From: a virus
Taxonomy: Duplodnaviria; Heunggongvirae; Uroviricota; Caudoviricetes
Length of the DNA stretch: 11,761 nucleotides
Virus record (IMG/VR): IMGVR_UViG_2617271050_000004
Reading direction: 5' to 3' (one strand)
Both the position numbers and the translations under genes were made by a program. This document shows, piece by piece, positions 2,856 through 11,761 of this stretch. Each line of letters opens with the position of its first letter. The first letter of the stretch is position 1. The notes below the pieces were generated by a model. The model did not search any database, had not been told where the DNA came from, and was given only the letters and a program-made list of their open reading frames with translations.

Positions 2856-3074
2856 TCAAAGAGAGAGCGCCACCTGTCCTGATTTCATTGGATGCGGCTG
2901 AACCGGATTTGACTCTTTTGGCGTTGCAATCGAACGAACAAAAGTTTCATGGGTAACAAAAGTATGGCTGCAGTTAATGTTCTGGCACTGGTTGTAACGC
3001 TCTTTGGTCAATGAAGATACCTGAAAACTGCTGCGAGTATGGGCGGCACTTCCACACAGTGGGCAAATCATCAT
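2856..3074 (-). CDS. ogr: Ogr/Delta-family zinc-finger late-gene transcription activator (about 72 aa)
   Basis: Translation MICPLCGSAAHTRSS...ERYNQCQNINCSHTF has the C-x2-C...C-x4-C zinc-finger pattern of P2 Ogr. I place the start at ATG 3072-3074 rather than the upstream GTG at 3107, because GGGGAGA lies about 9 nt upstream of that ATG and the resulting length matches Ogr. It is the last gene of the tail block, as in P2. Confidence 0.85.
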   Translation of the reverse strand: MMICPLCGSAAHTRSSFQVSSLTKERYNQCQNINCSHTFVTHETFVRSIATPKESNPVQPHPMKSGQVALSL

Positions 3075-3164
3075 TTTTCGAGTTCTCCCCATTTTTGCTA
3101 AATTCACAATAATGATACCGCATTATTCCATTTTGCAAACTTAAAAGTTCTCCATTGCGAAGAA

Positions 3165-4265
3165 TCATTCCATTTCGAAATCATCAATCCTCACTTCAAG
3201 CTCCAGACTGGTTGTAAAACCGTTATCGGGGCTGACGGTATGCGTCAGAGTCGTAATGGTCCATTCCGCATCATCTATCGGCTGTTTAAAGCCACTGACT
3301 TTCACTGGCATTTCCGTGTAGAGATCTGCCCGACCTTCTGCCAGTAGTAGCGAGAATGACGCAACGCCGCGTTGCAGGCGTTCCCACTGCATTTTCGCCG
3401 CCCGTTCGGCGTTGCTCCGGTTGGCATAAGTGCGATTAAGTACCAGCACGTTTTCATCCGTACCCACCAGGTAATCGCCCTGCTTCGCTTCCGGCTCTTT
3501 CTTCTGCTTCTTAGTCCTGCGCTTACGCTTCACCGTGGTGCTTTCTTTCTTCGCGGGTTCGCGGGTATGCAACCAGCTGGCAATTACGCCCGTGTAGGCT
3601 CCGCGATCTGCCAGGGTAAAGCGGTGACTGTCGCCGTCCTTACGTGTGATAGTGATAACCGGTAGTGGTTTACCGCTGGCGCTTTTACCCTGTCCCTGCC
3701 GGATGAATAACAGATTGCCATTTTTCACCGACGCAATAGCACCGTACTGGCGCGCCAGCCGCATCAGAAAACTGCCGTCACTCTCATTGGTCTGGTCTAT
3801 ATGCTCCACGGGTTTATCCGACAGGTCTTCACCCAATGCCATCTTCAGTTTGTGCCGCGCAGATATTTCCTTCACCACTTCCCCAACGGTGGTCTTGTGC
3901 CACGATTTTTCACGGCGGGTATTCAGCGTTTCACGAAAATCAGCACTTCGCGCCCGGATAGTCAGGCGGTCCGGTGCGCCAGTGTGTTCAATCTCGTCCA
4001 CCGTGAATGCCCCTTTCGGGAAAAGCGGCTGCCCCTTCCACCCCAGCGCCAGCGTAATGACCGCACCACGGCGCGGCAGCACGATTTTTCCGTCGGCGTC
4101 GTCCAGCTCCAGATCAAGCTGGTCCGCTTCAAATCCCCGATTGTCCGTCAGCGTCAGACTCATCAGGCGGTTATCCAGCACAGTAGTGATATCCCTGCCC
4201 TCAATACTGATGCTGAATGCGGGAGTTTTGTTGCCTTTGTTAAGCAGTTCAGAGCTGAAATTCAC
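3165..4265 (-). CDS. D: tail protein D (late control gene D family, 366 aa)
   Basis: Translation recognised as P2 gpD family. Position between U and ogr matches P2 order. The start overlaps the U stop by 4 nt. Confidence 0.88.
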   Translation of the reverse strand: MNFSSELLNKGNKTPAFSISIEGRDITTVLDNRLMSLTLTDNRGFEADQLDLELDDADGKIVLPRRGAVITLALGWKGQPLFPKGAFTVDEIEHTGAPDRLTIRARSADFRETLNTRREKSWHKTTVGEVVKEISARHKLKMALGEDLSDKPVEHIDQTNESDGSFLMRLARQYGAIASVKNGNLLFIRQGQGKSASGKPLPVITITRKDGDSHRFTLADRGAYTGVIASWLHTREPAKKESTTVKRKRRTKKQKKEPEAKQGDYLVGTDENVLVLNRTYANRSNAERAAKMQWERLQRGVASFSLLLAEGRADLYTEMPVKVSGFKQPIDDAEWTITTLTHTVSPDNGFTTSLELEVRIDDFEME

Positions 4266-4747
4266 GACAGCAGCCCTCCCACCGTTTTACTGATATCGCT
4301 TAATGCAGACGTTGCCGTGTCCTGCAGATTATTCAGTTGAGTACTGAGATCACCGAACATATCGGACAGGGATTCATCCACCCGTTTTAGCGAAAGGGTG
4401 AACTCAATCCTGCGCGGCATACCGTCGCGGAAAAACTCCGTTTTAGTCTGATTCAGTCCCTCAATCACATACATGCCGTAAATCGTGCCGCTGCCTTCAA
4501 TCAGGGGCCATGCTTTCCCCTGTTCTGCCATCTGCTCCAGTGCCAGCAACGACAGCCTGCCGCCTGTTATTTCCGGCATAAGAACACCGGAAAGCGTCAG
4601 CATGTCGTTTTCCGGTCCCAGAAACTGCGTGGACGGACGTCGGTTTACCCGACTGTTTGCCGCATGTCGCCAGCTGCGTTGATACTGCAGTTCCTGATAC
4701 GGAACGGTGCGCAGCATAAACACGTACAATCCCAGCACCATCATCAT
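4262..4747 (-). CDS. U: tail protein U (161 aa)
   Basis: Size and position between T and D match P2 gpU. Four-nt overlaps with both neighbours indicate translational coupling. Confidence 0.82.
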   Translation of the reverse strand: MMMVLGLYVFMLRTVPYQELQYQRSWRHAANSRVNRRPSTQFLGPENDMLTLSGVLMPEITGGRLSLLALEQMAEQGKAWPLIEGSGTIYGMYVIEGLNQTKTEFFRDGMPRRIEFTLSLKRVDESLSDMFGDLSTQLNNLQDTATSALSDISKTVGGLLS

Positions 4748-7700
4748 GCGTCGTATCCCCCCTGATCGCTGTAGTTACTCCTGGCTTTTGCCTTCAGCCT
4801 GCGTTCACGTTCATCAAGCTGGCGTGCCACCTCCCGCGCAATATCCTGCGCACTTTGTCCTGGCTGCGTCTGAATGATGATCTGCGTCGGTGCCTCAATC
4901 CGTTGAACGAGCGGCACAGTGGCTGCGCGACTCACAATTGCTTCTCCACCTTTCGCGGGAAGTGCCAAAGGGTGCAATGGTGGAAGCTCTGCTGGCGCGG
5001 CAGCAACGCCCATCATTCCGGCAACAACGGCAGCCAGTGCAGCTGTATTTCTCCGGCTGGTCACATTTGCCGGGCCGTTAACAATTTCCGGCCCGTTTTC
5101 ACCGACGATGCCAAACTGCCCGCGCGGGATATACCCGCCGCTGTCATACATCCCCGCAAAGCCATATCCCCATGATGGAAAACCACCCGATGGCATCATC
5201 ACTTTACCGTCTGCATTCACCGTCGCAGGTTGCTGACGCGTCACGCTTTCCGGCAGTTTTGCCTTTGCGGCCTCTTTACTGACAATGCCGAGCTTCTCCA
5301 GCAACCAGGAAACGCCGGATTTCAGGGAGTCCAGCGGATGCATGACCATATTCAGCCCTTCCGCCAGTGCCTCCCCGAATCGCCGCCCCATTGCCGCTGC
5401 GCTCTGCAGTTCGGCAGAGGTCGACTTAACGGGCGTCAGCAGATCAGTAAACCAGCCCCACAGCGCCTGCACTTTGTCGCCAATCCACTGGAACACGGGC
5501 TTAAGCGGTTCGAACGCTGCACTGATGGGACCTGCCGCCGCTTTGAATCCTTCCACCACGCCACCGAGAAATGCGGTGATGGGTTGCCAGTATTTCCAGA
5601 CAACCAGCGCCACGCCCGCCAGTGCAGTAACCACAAGACCTATCGGACTGAGCAGAGCACCTAACAGACCAGATATGGCATACAGGGCAACGCGCAGCAT
5701 CGCCAGTGGACCAGATGCCAGTACTCGCAGCACCGTGCCTGCGGCGGCCAGTCCACCGCGCAGTACCGCCAGAGGATTCATAAACATCACAGCAACAGCA
5801 CGTAAACCGGATAATCCAGACCGCAAAAGTGCAACCGGCGCACCTGCTACAGTTTTCAGGACATTTCCCGTCAGTGATGCCGTGCGGCGCAAAGACGACA
5901 ACGGCGCAGTAAGTAAACCTGCGGCGTTGCCCGATGAAGCAAGCCCGCGTCGCAGCAGTGCCAGTGGCGCGCCAGCCAGCCAGGACAACGCGCTGCTGGT
6001 TCGAGTTACTGCTGCCGTAACGGAAGATAACGTTTTGATACCCAACACAGAGAATCCCAGACGGATCACTGCTAGCGGCCCCAGCACTGCAGCCAGCGCC
6101 ACCGCTAAGGTGCCGAGGCCGACGGTAACCGCAGCCACAACAGCCGATGCTTTCATCAGTGTGCCTGTCAGTTCCGGGTTAGCTTCCACCCAGCGACGCA
6201 ACGCCCCCGTGACGCTTTTCACCGTGTACAGAATATCCATCAGCGGCTGGCGCAGCGTTTCGCCCAGGCTGCTGAAGGTGTTCTGCGCTCCGGTTTTGAC
6301 CAGCAACCACTGCGCAGAAAGTGAATCCTTGTTAATGTCGGATTCTTTCTGCATGGAGCCGAGCGCATCATTGCCCGCTGTCAGTTTTAACTGACGCTGC
6401 AGTTCCGGCAGGTTGTTTGCCAGTTTCGCCGCGTCATCGCCAAACTCTTTACCAAACAACATAGTCATGGCAGACAGGCGCTTGTCCTGCGGCAGCGCGT
6501 TTACCTTCTCCAGCACGCGCTGGATGGTTCCCATCGCATCCTTCGTCATCTGCTTTTCAATCACTTCAGGATTGAGTTTCAGCAGATTCATCCCTTCAAA
6601 GAAACTCTTGCTTTGCATGGTGGCAATGGACAATTCACGCACCATCGCGTTTGCTGCACTGGCTGCAACCTCTGGCGCAGCGCCCAGTGTCAGGAAGGTG
6701 GAACCCAGCGCCGCCGCTTTACGATAATCCAGACGGTCAGCCACACCGCCCAGACGTTGCATCACATCAATGATGTCTGCCCCTTTCGACATGGCGTTAT
6801 CATCCAGATAGTTCAGCGCATCACCGAGCTGTTCAATATTGCGGGTGGGGATTTTGTAGAGCTGGGCGATTTTCCCCAGACTTTCTGACAGTTCATCCGC
6901 TGGCAGCTCAAAGGCTGTTGCCGCCTTTGCTGCCGTACTGGCGAAGGCCAGCAGGTCACGTTTCTGATCTTCCCAGCTGTCGTCAGGGTTTGCGACGTTC
7001 ATGCGCGCACCACCTTCAACCAGTGCAGCGAAGTCCACCGCACCGTTTTCCATCGGCAACTGTTCGCTGGCAGCCTTGATGGCATCCTGCATTTCATAAA
7101 AACGTGCAGTGCGGTTGCCATTATCGTCACGCAGACCATTGACCTGCTTTGCCACACCTTTCATGGCATCTTCCATGCTGGTATAGCTTTTTACTGCCGC
7201 CATCACTGGCGCACCCATTGCCAGCCCTGCAGCCGTGGTGGTGGCTCCGGCACCTGCAATACGATCACGCACCTCCAGCGAACGGGCATAACTGGCACGC
7301 GCCGCATTCATCCTGCGCTGAGCTTCACCCAGTCGCTTCAGCCGCGCCTCCTGTTTCGAAAGCTCCTGGTTATAACGTGATGTTTCACGGGCTAAACGGG
7401 CAGTTGCTCCTGCATCGTCTTTCGCAGAAATTCCCGCCCGGTACAGTTCAGCACGCACAAGCGCCGTCTGCTGCTGCAGCTTTTTCTGGCGTTCTTCCAG
7501 GCGCTGAACAGCCAGCCGTTGACGGCCCAGAGCAACAACCTGACGTTGCGAAGGCGGCCCCATCGCTCCCAGTTCCTGACTGAGCAAATTTGCACGCTGG
7601 CGGGCATAGTTCAGCCTGTCGCCTAATTTCTGATTTTCTGCCTGCAGCTTTCGGAAGCTGTCCAGACTGCTCCCGGCCTGATCAAGCTGCTTTATTGCAT

Positions 7701-7821
7701 CGCGGGATTTTTTGACAGCAGCAGCCAGTTCTCTTGAACTGGCCTGTGCAGATCGAAATGGGCGGGTGAGCTTGTCAACCGCATTAAGAATGACCTGCAG
7801 ACGCAGGTTGTTATCACTCAT
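4744..7821 (-). CDS. T: tail tape measure protein T (1025 aa)
   Basis: Long ORF with a charged, coiled-coil-like N-terminal third, a hydrophobic Ala/Leu/Gly-rich middle with degenerate short repeats (APLALLRRGL, APVALLRSGL, NPLAVLRGGL, GPLAMLRVAL) and a Gly-rich C-terminus. This is typical tape measure architecture, and the gene lies immediately after E/E' as in P2. Confidence 0.9.
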   Translation of the reverse strand: MSDNNLRLQVILNAVDKLTRPFRSAQASSRELAAAVKKSRDAIKQLDQAGSSLDSFRKLQAENQKLGDRLNYARQRANLLSQELGAMGPPSQRQVVALGRQRLAVQRLEERQKKLQQQTALVRAELYRAGISAKDDAGATARLARETSRYNQELSKQEARLKRLGEAQRRMNAARASYARSLEVRDRIAGAGATTTAAGLAMGAPVMAAVKSYTSMEDAMKGVAKQVNGLRDDNGNRTARFYEMQDAIKAASEQLPMENGAVDFAALVEGGARMNVANPDDSWEDQKRDLLAFASTAAKAATAFELPADELSESLGKIAQLYKIPTRNIEQLGDALNYLDDNAMSKGADIIDVMQRLGGVADRLDYRKAAALGSTFLTLGAAPEVAASAANAMVRELSIATMQSKSFFEGMNLLKLNPEVIEKQMTKDAMGTIQRVLEKVNALPQDKRLSAMTMLFGKEFGDDAAKLANNLPELQRQLKLTAGNDALGSMQKESDINKDSLSAQWLLVKTGAQNTFSSLGETLRQPLMDILYTVKSVTGALRRWVEANPELTGTLMKASAVVAAVTVGLGTLAVALAAVLGPLAVIRLGFSVLGIKTLSSVTAAVTRTSSALSWLAGAPLALLRRGLASSGNAAGLLTAPLSSLRRTASLTGNVLKTVAGAPVALLRSGLSGLRAVAVMFMNPLAVLRGGLAAAGTVLRVLASGPLAMLRVALYAISGLLGALLSPIGLVVTALAGVALVVWKYWQPITAFLGGVVEGFKAAAGPISAAFEPLKPVFQWIGDKVQALWGWFTDLLTPVKSTSAELQSAAAMGRRFGEALAEGLNMVMHPLDSLKSGVSWLLEKLGIVSKEAAKAKLPESVTRQQPATVNADGKVMMPSGGFPSWGYGFAGMYDSGGYIPRGQFGIVGENGPEIVNGPANVTSRRNTAALAAVVAGMMGVAAAPAELPPLHPLALPAKGGEAIVSRAATVPLVQRIEAPTQIIIQTQPGQSAQDIAREVARQLDERERRLKAKARSNYSDQGGYDA

Positions 7822-8250
7822 CGTTGGCCCCGCTTCTCTGAATCGCTTTATACCGCCATTCCAGCACTTCGGTCAGCGGCATAACGTCAGTAACGGATGG
7901 CGGCCAGTGAAAAATGGTGGCGATATCTGCCACCAGATCGTCAACCGTCAGGCTGTCGGCAAACCGGCAAGCACCGACTTCTTCAACAAAAAAGTGACAA
8001 CCTCAACCGACATGGCAGTGAGATCTGCCGGGTCCATCTCTGCAATTTCCTGTGCAGTCAGTGCCGGACTGGAGATGCGGGGGATCACGGTCATCATCGC
8101 GTTTACATCCATATCCATAATGGCCTGCAGGCGTGTACCGCGCAGCGCACCGGACTGCGGTTTACGCAGCACAATTTCGGTGATTTCTGTTTTACCGCGC
8201 TTGATGGGGGTATCCAGTTGAATGGTCTTTTCAGTCTGCTTATCGCTCAT
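7814..8250 (-). CDS. E+E': tail assembly chaperone E+E' (about 145 aa), made by programmed -1 ribosomal frameshift at 7987-7993
   Basis: On the minus strand the zero-frame codons ACT TTT TTG form the heptamer T_TTT_TTG. After a -1 slip the reading frame stays open for 57 codons (VEEVGACRFADSLTVDDLVADIATIFHWPPSVTDVMPLTEVLEWRYKAIQRSGANDE) and ends at TGA 7814-7816, overlapping the T start codon (7819-7821). I translated this by hand from the sequence. Confidence 0.75.
7948..8250 (-). CDS. E: tail assembly chaperone E (100 aa, zero-frame product)
   Basis: Small ORF between FII and T, the position of P2 gene E. It contains the slippery heptamer near its 3' end. Confidence 0.82.
   Translation of the reverse strand: MSDKQTEKTIQLDTPIKRGKTEITEIVLRKPQSGALRGTRLQAIMDMDVNAMMTVIPRISSPALTAQEIAEMDPADLTAMSVEVVTFLLKKSVLAGLPTA
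7987..7993 (-). other. Programmed -1 frameshift slippery heptamer TTTTTTG (plus strand CAAAAAA)
   Basis: Exact X_XXY_YYZ heptamer in the E zero frame. It sits where the E/E' (lambda G/GT-like) frameshift is expected, about 87 codons into E. Confidence 0.75.
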
Positions 8251-8304
8251 TTTGCTGTCCTGTCAATTGGGTTCTGGCGCGGTATCCCGCGCCGTTCAGA
8301 TATA

Positions 8305-8820
8305 TCAGAGGCCGAGGGCGTTGCGGTGCGCTTCCATCAGGTCCACACCGTCCACAATTTCCACCATGTTGATAAGGTCCACTTCATAGAGCACCTCACC
8401 ATTGATGGTCAGCTTCGCGTAGCTGTTGGTACTGGTCACTTTGGTGGTGTTGCTTTCGCCCGTCTTCCACTCGCCGGAATCCACTTCTTTGTGACGTCCA
8501 CGCACGACAAGCTCCACGGCCTGCACTTCCCCGGTATCGTCACGCTGAATAGAGCCGGTAAAGCGCAGCTGGATGCCATCCACCGTGGCTTTACCCATCT
8601 GTTTAAACAGCAGCAATTCAGTACCACCAATGGAAAATTCTGTGTCCAGCGCACTGTCATCAAGCCCCAGGTCCACATCCACCGCACCCGGCATTCCGCC
8701 GCCGCGATACTTCTCATATTTGCGGGTAAATTTCGGCAGCGTCAGCGACTCAACGATCCCCTGCCAGTTGTTCCCGTCGTTAAACAGGTTCAGGTGTTTT
8801 AATTTGCGTGGTAAAGCCAT
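8305..8820 (-). CDS. FII: tail tube protein FII (171 aa)
   Basis: Translation MALPRKLKHLNLFNDG... recognised as P2 FII family. It lies immediately downstream of FI with a 9-nt spacer. Confidence 0.9.
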   Translation of the reverse strand: MALPRKLKHLNLFNDGNNWQGIVESLTLPKFTRKYEKYRGGGMPGAVDVDLGLDDSALDTEFSIGGTELLLFKQMGKATVDGIQLRFTGSIQRDDTGEVQAVELVVRGRHKEVDSGEWKTGESNTTKVTSTNSYAKLTINGEVLYEVDLINMVEIVDGVDLMEAHRNALGL

Positions 8821-8829
8821 GTTGTCCCC

Positions 8830-10002
8830 TTACGCGCTGACCTGGCTGGCGAAATTCACCAGGTACTGATCGGTGATGCGCTGACGCAGCATCAGGTTTT
8901 CAAGTGGCGGCACTGGCGTGTAGTCGTAGTCGATGGTGAGTTTTCCGGCTTTCAGCGTGTCTTTGTCGTTCACCGACTCATCCAGCCAGCAATCACCACC
9001 AATGAGATAGCCCTGACTGACCAGGCTGCGCATTTTGGCGCGGATACCTTCGATAATGTCGCGGGCCAGCGACGGGTTAAGCGGTTTATCCACCGCCCAC
9101 AGGTGTGCTTCTGCCATCGTGTCCATCAGCACCTGCGCCGTGCGGGTGTAGTTTTCGAAGGCAAAGAGCGGGTCATCACTCAGGCAGCGGGAACCCCAGA
9201 AGCGGAAACCGTCTTTACGCACAAGCGTGGTGACGTCGTTCTGGTTCAGCAGACCTGCATCGGTTGCCGGGTCCTGCAGATCCCAGAACACATCTGCAGA
9301 AATTCCGGTGACACCGTTCACGCCCACGTTGGACAGGCTTTTGTGCCATCCGGTCTGCTCGTCAATTTTGGCGCGCAGACCAAGCGCACGGGCGGTGGCA
9401 TATGCCGTTGCTTCGGCATTCAGCACCGTGTCCCAGCCAGTAAAGTCAGGCCAGATCAGCATCCCTTCGCGCTGGCTGAAGTTTTCGCGGTAAGTGATCG
9501 CCTCCTGCACTGTCTTGCAGCCATACGCTGACAGGTAAGCAAATCCACGCAGGCTTTGCGCCACGCTTAGCAACTCAGTAGCTACCGCCTTGGTGTCGTG
9601 GCCTGGCACGCCGAGAATGCGCGGTTTAACGCCGAGCTGTGACTGGGCAGATAACAGGGCTTTCATACCTGTTTTTTTACCTTCAGCAGTCACTGCGCCG
9701 ATGATATTGGTCGTGGTTTCGTCTTCCGTTTCACCCTGCGGCACACGCACAACAATGGTCACGGGTTTTGCCTGGTCAGCGATGGCATCCAGCGAACGGG
9801 CCAGAGTACCTGACTCACCCGCTTTACCGCTGGCAGTCAGCACATCAGTGATCAGCACGGGTTTATTAAGAGGAAACATTTTTGCATCGGCATCATCGCC
9901 CGTGCAGACCATACCCACGATGGCGGTGCTCACCGTGGTAATGGATCGGGTGCCTTCGTTGACTTCAACAACGCGCACCCCGTGGTGGTAATCCTGAGCC
10001 AT
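8830..10002 (-). CDS. FI: contractile tail sheath protein FI (390 aa)
   Basis: Translation [34 protein letters not shown]... is closely similar to P2 FI from memory. A strong RBS (AGGAGG) lies about 9 nt upstream of ATG 10000-10002. Confidence 0.92.
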
Positions 10003-10144: not shown

Positions 10145-10711
10145 TCAGGGAGATTTATTGCTCTTATTTGCCGGAAATTTTCGATAAATGGTAGAAACGC
10201 CTACATCAAAAATCAGTGCAATACGCTGTCTTGATTCTCCGGCCTCGAGTAAACGCCCAATCTGTGCCCACTGTTCGCTGGTCAACTTAGGACGGCGTCC
10301 ACCTACTCTGCCCTTAGCACGAGCTGCAGCCAGCCCCGCCCTGGTACGTTCAACTATCAGTTCGCGTTCCATTTCAGCCAGGGCACCCATGACATGAAAA
10401 AAGAAACGGCCCATTGGGGTGCTGGTATCAATACTGTCAGTCAGGCTTCGGAAATTCACGCCACGCTGGCGCAGCTCTTCTATCAGCGTAACAAGATGCC
10501 GCATACTGCGCCCCAGTCTGTCCAGCTTCCAGACAACCAGCGTGTCTCCTGCCGATAGTGTCCTGAGCAGCTTTTTCAGCCCCGGTCTGTCTGACTTGGT
10601 GCCACTGATTTTATCCTCAAAAATCCGCTCACATCCCGCACAGTTCAGTGCATTGCGTTGCAAATCGGTGTTCTGGTCATTTGTTGACACGCGTACATAG
10701 CCAATAAGCAT
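10145..10711 (-). CDS. serine-recombinase DNA invertase (Gin/Hin/Pin/Cin family, about 188 aa)
   Basis: N-terminus MLIGYVRVSTNDQNTDLQRNAL... with the catalytic serine context VRVSTxxQ, and a C-terminal helix-turn-helix (VGVSTIYRKF). It is near-identical in pattern to the e14 Pin and Mu Gin invertases. I place the start at the second ATG (10709-10711) because GGGGGA lies about 5 nt upstream; the ORF track starts 6 nt earlier. Confidence 0.9.
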   Translation of the reverse strand: MLIGYVRVSTNDQNTDLQRNALNCAGCERIFEDKISGTKSDRPGLKKLLRTLSAGDTLVVWKLDRLGRSMRHLVTLIEELRQRGVNFRSLTDSIDTSTPMGRFFFHVMGALAEMERELIVERTRAGLAAARAKGRVGGRRPKLTSEQWAQIGRLLEAGESRQRIALIFDVGVSTIYRKFPANKSNKSP

Positions 10712-10738
10712 GATCATCCCCCTGAATAAAAACCGGAA

Positions 10739-11290
10739 ATGATGCCAGTTAGCCGTTATCTCTGCATTTTCATAAACGTTGGTTTAGGAGAAGGCTCAGC
10801 ATTGCCTGTTGGCGTACCTGTTCCGTGGCCCTCAGCCACTCCGCCAACAGGCTGGCTAAAATGCAACGGAGCAGCTTTTTCTGCTGAAGAATACCCAGAA
10901 CTGGCAAAGGCTTACCCGACAAATAAATTGCCTGATTTACGTGGTGAGTTTATTCGTGGCTGGGATGACGGACGTGGTATGGATACGGGGAGGGCAATAT
11001 TATCAGCTCAGGGCGATGCCATACGTAATATCTATGGTGAGTTCAAGACTGTAAACACCGAAAATTATTCAATATGGGAATCAGTAGGCTCGTTTAAGGG
11101 GGCAGTGGTGCCTTTGAATCCATCAACGAACAATAGTTATTTCTCCTTAATCAGAAGTATGGTGACTGAAAGAACAGATGGCGCTGTTTACCCAAAAGTG
11201 ATTGGCCTTGATGCTTCAAGAATTGTTCCAACTGCAAACGAAAACCGTCCTCGTAACATTGCCTTTAATTATATCGTGAGAGCTGCCTGA
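10739..11290 (+). CDS. tail-fibre C-terminal variable cassette (alternative, currently unfused orientation)
   Basis: The ORF starts in or at the crossover site and reads into the segment. The translation (GVPVPWPSATPPTGWLKCNGAAFSAEEYPELAKAYPTNKLPDLRGEFIRGWDDGRGMD...) resembles the receptor-binding C-terminal part of phage tail fibres (Mu S/S', P1 S, P2 H). There is no convincing RBS and no N-terminal constant part on this strand. Its stop overlaps the start of the downstream assembly gene (TGATG). Confidence 0.7.
   Translation: MMPVSRYLCIFINVGLGEGSALPVGVPVPWPSATPPTGWLKCNGAAFSAEEYPELAKAYPTNKLPDLRGEFIRGWDDGRGMDTGRAILSAQGDAIRNIYGEFKTVNTENYSIWESVGSFKGAVVPLNPSTNNSYFSLIRSMVTERTDGAVYPKVIGLDASRIVPTANENRPRNIAFNYIVRAA
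10767..10792. promoter_or_regulatory. Candidate 26-bp invertase crossover site (gix/hix-like) bounding the invertible tail-fibre segment
   Basis: TTTTCATAAACG-TT-GGTTTAGGAGAA: two imperfect 12-bp inverted half-sites around a 2-bp core, with the AAAC..GGTTT centre typical of gix/hix sites (about 9 of 12 matches per half-site to TTATCAAAAACC as recalled). It lies 56 bp from the invertase start, inside the 5' end of the tail-fibre cassette ORF. Confidence 0.45.
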
Positions 11291-11554
11291 TGAATAAAGC
11301 CGTATTAAATAACGAACTCATTGCCATAAAAGCGGGAGACATTACCATTTATAATTATGATGGTGAAACGCGGGAATATATTTCCACATCAACTGAATAT
11401 CTTGCGGTTGGCGTCGGTATCCCGGCATGTTCTTGTTTAGATGCACCAGTTACACATAAAGCTGGTTATGCAATCTGCCGATCTGCAGATTTTAACTCAT
11501 GGGAATGTGTGCCAGACCATCGCGGTGAAATCGTCTTTAGCACCGAAACAGGAN
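11290..11554 (+). CDS. tail-fibre assembly protein (Tfa/U'-like), N-terminal part, truncated by the assembly gap
   Basis: Translation MNKAVLNNELIAIKAGDITIYNYDGETREYI... has the look of Tfa N-terminal domains and is start/stop-coupled to the preceding tail-fibre cassette. The ORF runs into the N-run at 11555. Confidence 0.65.
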
Positions 11555-11564
11555 NNNNNNNNNG
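11555..11564. other. Assembly gap (10 N)
   Basis: A run of ten n characters. Coding frames on the two sides are incompatible, so the true gap is larger than 10 bp or the join is artificial. Confidence 0.95.
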
Positions 11565-11761
11565 GCGTTAAGTCGGGTTGTTTCTGCCTGCGTCAGTTTA
11601 CGTGCGGCCTGCAATTTCAGCTGAATCAGACTGATGGAAGCCATTGCAGCATCAATCAGTGACTGACGCTGTGCTTCTGCCGCGTCTACTGCGGCATTAT
11701 GCTGTGCCTCAGTATCTGTCACCCATTTCTCACCATCCCATTTATCGTATGGCGTTAACGG
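11565..11761 (-). CDS. tail-fibre assembly protein (Tfa/U-like), C-proximal fragment; N-terminus lies beyond the window end, C-terminus is lost in the gap
   Basis: The minus-strand frame is open from the window edge: PLTPYDKWDGEKWVTDTEAQHNAAVDAAEAQRQSLIDAAMASISLIQLKLQAARKLTQAETTRLNA. This matches the conserved C-terminal region of lambda/e14-type Tfa proteins from memory. It is convergent with the plus-strand tfa, as in Mu G or P1 C invertible segments. Confidence 0.65.

Follow-up and report, generated by a model that had tools for sequence, protein, structure and literature searches.

A probable E/E+E' programmed -1 frameshift site in the tail operon of a P2-like Escherichia coli prophage

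The tail operon and the E/E' junction

The window analysed here, a stretch of 11,761 nt, consisted of Escherichia coli chromosome and the right end of a P2-like prophage of a common Elveevirus/Felsduovirus-like lineage. Of 5426 complete E. coli genomes, 766 matched at least 80% of the window. The 651 nt around E/E' (7700-8350) shared 99.7% identity with the deposited Escherichia phage 500465-1, 97% with Cartapus (Elveevirus), and ~85% with Fels-2, SopEPhi, and SEN8 (Felsduovirus). On the minus strand the genes of this contractile-tail operon ran FI-FII-E-E'-T-U-D-ogr, with Pfam matches to sheath, tube, TAC_7, GpE, tape measure, GpU, and GPD. E/E' was flanked by FII, which encodes the tail tube, and by T, which encodes the tape measure. 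The FI, FII, E, T, U, D, and ogr ORFs were all intact, which together with the 99.7% identity to phage 500465-1 makes a functional tail module plausible. The features of the window, in order of their first coordinate, were:

1-2620: E. coli chromosomal genes grxA, ybjM, and ybjL, followed by the prophage right end
2856-3107, minus strand: prophage gene ogr
3165-4265, minus strand: prophage gene D, Pfam GPD match
4262-4747, minus strand: prophage gene U, Pfam GpU match
4744-7821, minus strand: gene T, ORF for the tape measure protein (1025 aa), Pfam PF10145
7814-7933, minus strand: stand-alone 39-aa "GpE family phage tail protein" ORF with GTG 7933, from public annotation
7814-7987, minus strand: E' extension in the -1 frame, 57 sense codons and a TGA, with PF06528 and PHROG 1756
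7948-8250, minus strand: gene E, ORF and translation of the zero-frame tail assembly chaperone (100 aa), Pfam PF10109 Phage_TAC_7, PHROG 103
7951-8002, minus strand: dual-open stretch of 52 nt, outside which a -1 shift could not fuse E with E'
7961-7980, minus strand: weak hairpin AAGUCGG/CCGGUUU, 6 nt 3' of the heptamer, -2.6 to -5.3 kcal/mol
7987-7993, minus strand: slippery heptamer T_TTT_TTG, E codons 86-88 (ACT TTT TTG)
7996-8004, minus strand: Shine-Dalgarno (SD)-like GAGGTTGTC, 2 bases upstream of the heptamer, a candidate 5' stimulator (GAGGTGGTC in relatives)
8305-8820, minus strand: gene FII, tail tube protein, adjoining E upstream, Pfam PF04985 (E 8.8e-60)
8830-10002, minus strand: prophage gene FI, Pfam sheath match
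10145-10717: serine invertase
From 10739: tail-fibre ORFs in the opposite orientation

Gene E, listed as "phage tail assembly protein" in the record of a near-identical E. coli genome, started at ATG 8250 and stopped at TGA 7950-7948. An initial annotation had proposed an intact -1 frameshift over 7814-8250, coordinates that run exactly from the E start to the E' stop. The heptamer it had placed in the E zero frame was present at 7993-7987, in the T_TTT_TTG phase that a -1 slip requires. Retranslation also reproduced the claimed 57-codon open -1 frame, with GTT 7987-7985 as the first codon after the slip, GAG 7819-7817 as the last sense codon, and TGA 7816-7814 as the stop. The predicted fusion combined E residues 1-88 with the 57 codons of the -1 frame into 145 aa, with the junction peptide ...VVTFL/VEEVG... 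(...SVEVVTFLVEEVGACR...). Since the -1 frame is closed upstream by TGA 8005-8003 and E ends at its own stop, a -1 shift is possible only between 8002 and 7951. T_TTT_TTG, within this 52-nt stretch, was the sole in-phase X_XXY_YYZ in E, and the -1 frame opened 9 nt (three codons) before it.

One detail of the initial annotation needed correction. It had placed the E' stop over the start codon of T, but T starts at ATG 7821-7819 and the E' stop falls in T codons 2-3, giving an 8-nt overlap between the E' ORF and T (ATGAGTGA). The TGA that overlaps the ATG (7820-7818) belongs to the third frame. From the E stop to the T start there was a gap of 126 nt in a tightly packed operon.

Close to where T ends, a second in-phase heptamer, G_GGG_GGA (4762-4756), leads into the U frame, but it was better read as the Shine-Dalgarno sequence of U (-10.2 kcal/mol). 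T and U do not overlap in P2.

The heptamer and the open frame were unremarkable as raw counts. TTTTTTG was not enriched, with four occurrences in the window and 3.5 expected. The probability of a -1 frame staying open for at least 57 codons was ~0.04 in a geometric estimate from stop density, and such frames occurred at 0.11 of positions empirically across six tail genes. These are weak statistics alone; homology and conservation give the site its significance.

Homology and conservation of E and E'

Each part of the predicted fusion matched a different Pfam family. Gene E matched PF10109 Phage_TAC_7 at 1e-18 (67.5 bits; cut-off 25), a match that covered fusion residues 9-88 at E 2e-18, and residues 107-143 matched PF06528 Phage_P2_GpE at E 2.8e-18 (65.5 bits; cut-off 23). 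The Pfam scan of the fusion returned no other family. PHROG 1756 spanned the junction, covering fusion residues 85-145. By tblastn, E was 44% identical to P2 gpE and E' was 56% identical to P2 E' across all 57 residues, which with the PF06528 match bears out the likeness to P2 E' claimed initially for the -1 extension. The fusion matched 425 phage records by tblastn, with 388 covering at least 80% of it, and among the matches listed every full-length one (at least 80%) was in two pieces corresponding to two frames. The fusion had no match in NCBIfam, and a PDB sequence search found none. An AlphaFold2 model of a near-identical natural fusion (P0001; 26-sequence alignment) had a mean pLDDT of 47.7 and was unusable.

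Diversity was sampled from phage records and bacterial genome contigs. We compared 16 diverse P2-like genomes, spanning Peduovirus, Felsduovirus, Eganvirus, Entnonagintavirus, Kayeltresvirus, and phages of Ralstonia, Vibrio, Mannheimia, Acidovorax, Zymomonas, and others. All 16 had E' in the -1 frame and an in-phase slippery heptamer within the dual-open stretch. This heptamer was T_TTT_TTG in 11 phages, with T_TTT_TTC, T_TTT_TTT, G_GGA_AAG, C_CCT_TTC, and A_AAT_TTT found in one each. A species-level set of 78 loci at 38-89% identity, from bacterial genomes taken one per species, likewise had E' in the -1 frame at every locus (78/78), with T_TTT_TTG in 73 and T_TTT_TTA in five. The P2 E/E+E' signature named in the initial annotation holds in the wider group: P2 has the identical heptamer and phase, and a -1-frame E' with an in-phase slippery heptamer is kept in 16/16 phages and 78/78 loci.

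Variation among close relatives followed the codon phase of whichever frame was being read. A scan of viral contigs with E gave 80 loci with an identical E protein, which served for close-variant statistics only. The E and E' ORFs were intact in all 44 distinct close DNA variants, and the heptamer was TTTTTTG in 43 and TTTTTTA in one. Upstream of the heptamer, 41/53 variable sites were at the third position of the E frame, while past the E stop 14/25 were at the third position of the E' frame (chi-square p 0.03). Only two variable sites fell within the 46 nt that separate the start of the heptamer from the stop of E, compared with 78/388 elsewhere (44 variants, Fisher p 0.008), a low level of variation that is expected of dual coding. 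Codon differences from SEN8 past the E stop split 10:6 (synonymous:non-synonymous) when read in the E' frame and 4:13 in the E frame. Codon-phase variation and the 44/44 intact ORFs indicate purifying selection on E'.

Sequence context of the slippery heptamer

The initial annotation had suggested a stem-loop or pseudoknot 3' of the heptamer, and this was unsupported. Folding z-scores downstream were -1.17 (104 nt) and -0.82 (54 nt), and RNAalifold found no consensus pairs in 10 relatives or in 62. The weak hairpin at 7980-7961 could pair in 87% of cells vs 85% in shuffles, with few double changes. We rejected a downstream stimulator, including two hand-drawn hairpins, for lack of a significantly stable fold or a consensus; conservation of the columns accounts for the pairing. 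P2 and its Burkholderia relatives likewise have no downstream structure (PMC3091744). In this respect the site differs from 3'-stimulator sites of the IS3, dnaX, and coronavirus type, which carry a stable conserved structure 5-9 nt downstream.

Upstream of the heptamer, at positions 4 to 6 counted back from the shift-site end, the 78 phylogenetically related loci carried a run of Glu-Val-Val codons with nearly fixed synonymous sites. The Glu codon was GAG in 71 and GAA in one, in contrast to the other Glu columns of the gene (GAG 19, GAA 54). The first Val codon was GTG in 62/69 and the second GTC in 53. In relatives this gives the motif GAGGUGGUC, a 9-bp match (one G.U) to the 16S 3' end, with a median anti-SD energy of -10.4 kcal/mol; at 87% of loci it ranked in the best 10% of the locus. 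The window's version, GAGGUUGUC (8004-7996), had a mismatch and paired less strongly, at -6.8 kcal/mol, which ranks it among the best 9% of its locus. The element ended 2 nt before the heptamer and its core 5-7 nt before, shorter than the 9-14 nt spacing reported to stimulate -1 shifts.

This motif is a possible 5' stimulator, and we treat it as a lead, not a finding. A stronger version, that P2-type E/E' frameshifting depends on an internal SD-like GAGGUGGUC before U_UUU_UUG and not on downstream structure, is a tentative idea drawn from these alignments that we think rather less probable than its opposite. If true, it would extend the rules for 5' stimulators to spacing closer than 9-14 nt, and the element could account for a mediocre heptamer reaching a frequency in P2 that is reportedly about 10%. 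On this view the GAGGUUGUC form in the window would be expected to shift less often than the forms in relatives from Salmonella, Citrobacter, and Xenorhabdus. U_UUU_UUG is outside the most efficient heptamers in reporter assays made in E. coli (PMC4066793). The rank of the heptamer, the lack of a supported downstream structure, and an SD-like element that is weaker than in relatives and closely spaced bear on the efficiency of the site and not on its identity.

The frameshift reading, its alternatives, and known systems

We interpret the site as the E/E+E' programmed -1 ribosomal frameshift of a P2-like (Elveevirus/Felsduovirus-type) E. coli prophage, with a probability of about 90%. In the mechanism we infer, most ribosomes would read E to its stop at 7948 and produce the 100-aa chaperone. 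In a minority, tRNA-Phe on UUU in the P site and tRNA-Leu on UUG in the A site would slip together on U_UUU_UUG to UUU UUU, and these ribosomes would then read 57 codons in the -1 frame to make the 145-aa E+E', ending 8 nt inside T. By analogy with P2 and lambda G/GT, the E part shared by both products may bind and coat the tape measure T, the E' part may recruit the tail tube protein FII, and neither E nor E+E' would be in the virion. The T product is the presumed client of both. The slip would set a fixed ratio of E to E+E' needed by tail assembly.

Other routes to the same arrangement fit the data poorly. RNA polymerase could join E and E' by dropping one U, or adding two, in the T6 run. 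The heptamer site is a homopolymer run, and in-frame fusions are encoded by some assemblies that have a T7 run, which shows that the length of the run varies at some level, biologically or through sequencing. Efficient polymerase slippage in bacteria usually needs runs longer than six T, though, and the non-homopolymeric G_GGA_AAG, C_CCT_TTC, and A_AAT_TTT of relatives, at the same place and phase, fit tandem tRNA slippage and do not fit stuttering by the polymerase. The strict X_XXY_YYZ zero-frame phase is also a requirement of ribosomes and not of polymerase, and we consider transcriptional slippage quite unlikely. It is scarcely credible that the heptamer and the open -1 frame yield no product and are there by chance, or as a decaying remnant in a defective prophage. 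Heptamer frequency does equal chance, and -1 frames open for at least 57 codons exist at 4-11% of positions, but both parts have homologs (E about 1e-18), conservation is universal, variation tracks the E' codon phase, and the neighbouring tail genes are all intact. Coincidence would also leave unexplained the 126 nt that separate E from T.

The remaining alternative is that E' is a separate small gene of 39 aa translated from GTG 7933, with no need for a frameshift. Exactly this 39-aa GpE ORF, beside E and without the fusion, is what PGAP draws in a near-identical E. coli genome and what several phage records list, and some relatives have a start codon at the aligned position (GTG here, ATG in P2). 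The initial annotation had stated that gene callers miss E'; this was right for the fusion, but a fragment of E', the GTG 7933 ORF, is in fact recorded. No ribosome-binding site precedes GTG 7933, where anti-SD pairing was -3.0 kcal/mol, near background, and the other start-like codons in the E' frame were weaker (ATG 7882 -0.2 kcal/mol, GTG 7867 +0.1 kcal/mol), compared with -7 to -11.5 kcal/mol for FI, FII, T, U, and D and -4.0 kcal/mol for E. The start codon was not conserved, with Ala, Trp, or Ile as the aligned residue in distant relatives, while protein conservation and PHROG 1756 reached upstream to the heptamer and included the conserved D105 and a VDDL (V-D/E-D) motif ahead of GTG 7933. 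Also against a separate gene, the -1 frame opens just 9 nt ahead of the heptamer, and a heptamer is kept in 94/94 loci. For P2, a frameshift origin of the extension was demonstrated, according to the accounts of Christie et al. 2002 in PMC3091744 and PMC5009743. The Fels-2 record, at about 86% nucleotide identity over E/E', carries the remark "forms functional gpE+E' if translational slippage occurs". We find an independent E' gene very improbable and judge the 39-aa ORF to be an annotation artefact that probably represents the 3' part of E+E'.

The closest characterized system to the E/E+E' frameshift is gpE/gpE+E' of the P2 FETUD tail operon (AF063097, Christie et al. 2002), whose record joins E+E' in one CDS and labels a misc_feature "site of -1 translational frameshift". 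P2 has its site in the same position between FII and T, with the same T_TTT_TTG in the same phase (GGT TTT TTG), the same 57-codon -1 extension, and the same 8-nt overlap of the E' stop and T start (ATGAGTxA; ATGAGTAA in P2), and the fusions are 49% identical overall. The two differ in the lengths of E (91 aa in P2 vs 100 here), the fusion (142 vs 145), and T (815 aa vs 1025). P2 E also runs seven codons past the shift codons vs 12 here, its dual-open stretch is 34 vs 52 nt, and its SD-like motif upstream of the heptamer is AAGGUGGUC vs GAGGUUGUC. Fels-2, SopEPhi, and SEN8 (Felsduovirus), along with Cartapus and 4LV2017 (Elveevirus), are closer still, at 85-99.7% nucleotide identity across the 651-nt E/E' region with the same lengths and junctions, and the window is essentially another copy of this Fels-2/Cartapus-type prophage lineage.

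Lambda gpG/gpGT (Levin 1993; Xu, Hendrix and Duda 2004) exemplifies the tail assembly chaperone frameshift general to long-tailed phages and shares the layout here, in which two ORFs that overlap, placed after the major tail gene and before the one for the tape measure, are joined by a low-frequency -1 slip on an X_XXY_YYZ heptamer. Products of this tail assembly chaperone class are absent from virions (PMC5009743). The lambda heptamer is G_GGA_AAG, with a shift frequency of about 4%, and P2-type phages reportedly shift two- to three-fold more frequently (PMC5009743). Neither the Pfam scan, which gave PF10109 and PF06528 only, nor the PDB sequence search found homology to lambda gpG/gpT, so the relation to G/GT appears to be one of position and mechanism only. 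E. coli dnaX (A_AAA_AAG) likewise has an internal SD-like sequence upstream of a -1 heptamer, comparable to GAGGUGGUC in the relatives here, but its SD spacing is 10 nt vs 5-7 nt, it has a downstream hairpin where no strong one occurs here, and its frameshift product is the shorter one while here it is the longer.

The feature is already known and belongs to a common prophage lineage, and frameshift biology gains nothing new from it; the conserved upstream SD-like motif is the sole lead. For annotation, a near-identical E. coli genome and related phage records split the site into two genes, and the true second product would be the fusion of 145 aa made by frameshifting. A prophage still able to build tails must have this site intact, so its state bears on inducibility, tailocin-like activity, and phage typing.

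Slippery heptamer of gene E and its 5' flank

The heptamer T_TTT_TTG, at which a -1 slip in E would yield the E+E' fusion, is preceded by this element:

7996-8004, minus strand, Shine-Dalgarno-like motif directly upstream of the slippery heptamer, with counterparts just 5' of the heptamers of the species-level loci L107-L186

The motif of the relatives is GAGGTGGTC, and across the 78 species-level loci its synonymous sites are almost invariant, with the Glu codon being GAG in 71 and GAA in 1, and the Val codon GTG in 62/69. The window carries a weaker form, GAGGTTGTC. The motif may be a 5' stimulator of the frameshift, though its core lies 5-7 nt from the heptamer, closer than the range known for -1 shifts (9-14 nt). 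The heptamer itself was T_TTT_TTA in 5/78 species-level loci (L112, L117, L124, L186, and one more) and in one of 44 close variants. Since T_TTT_TTA is also a valid slippery heptamer (Leu UUA), G as the last base is not strictly needed.

Ten contigs from different samples (Logan assemblies L101-L106, e.g., L101:855-870) had a run of seven Ts rather than six, and there a 145-aa ORF joins E and E' in frame (protein P0001). The protein database held other rare 'fusions' of 143-145 aa that switch frame at different points. The seven-T contigs and these rare proteins may be real variants, or else homopolymer or indel errors.

The T/U junction

4756-4762, minus strand, second in-phase heptamer, G_GGG_GGA, five codons upstream of the T stop

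The -1 frame at this heptamer is gene U, and T and U overlap by ATGA, an overlap missing from P2. Fels-2 has G_GGG_GGG at the same position. Most simply, the G run is the ribosome-binding site of U, because it pairs well with the anti-Shine-Dalgarno bases (-10.2 kcal/mol) and lies 8 nt upstream of the U ATG.

Host junction and tail-fibre end

2620-2856, host/prophage junction, between ybjL (stop at 2620) and ogr
10145-11761, region of recombinase and tail-fibre genes
minus strand, serine recombinase of 190 aa with Resolvase and HTH_7 domains
10739-11290, plus strand, tail-fibre C-terminal piece with a Collar domain
from 11290, plus strand, tail-fibre assembly gene

Within the junction, ~2727-2776 resembles a terminator, having a hairpin and a T run. 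Of 5426 complete E. coli genomes, 766 matched at least 80% of the window. The plus-strand tail-fibre ORFs adjoin the minus-strand serine recombinase, and this arrangement suggests that an invertible segment for host range, as in Mu G/P1 C, has one of its ends in 10145-11761 and the other beyond the window; no inverted repeat was found within the window.

Tail tube and tape measure

Several RefSeq phage records (L002, L087, L091, and L096) name the homologue of the FII tail tube protein (Pfam Phage_tube) 'head closure', which looks like a propagated annotation error. The tape measure protein T (4744-7821, minus strand) has 1025 aa, compared with 815 aa in P2. If tail length is set by tape measure length, the tail of this lineage would be about a quarter longer than that of P2.
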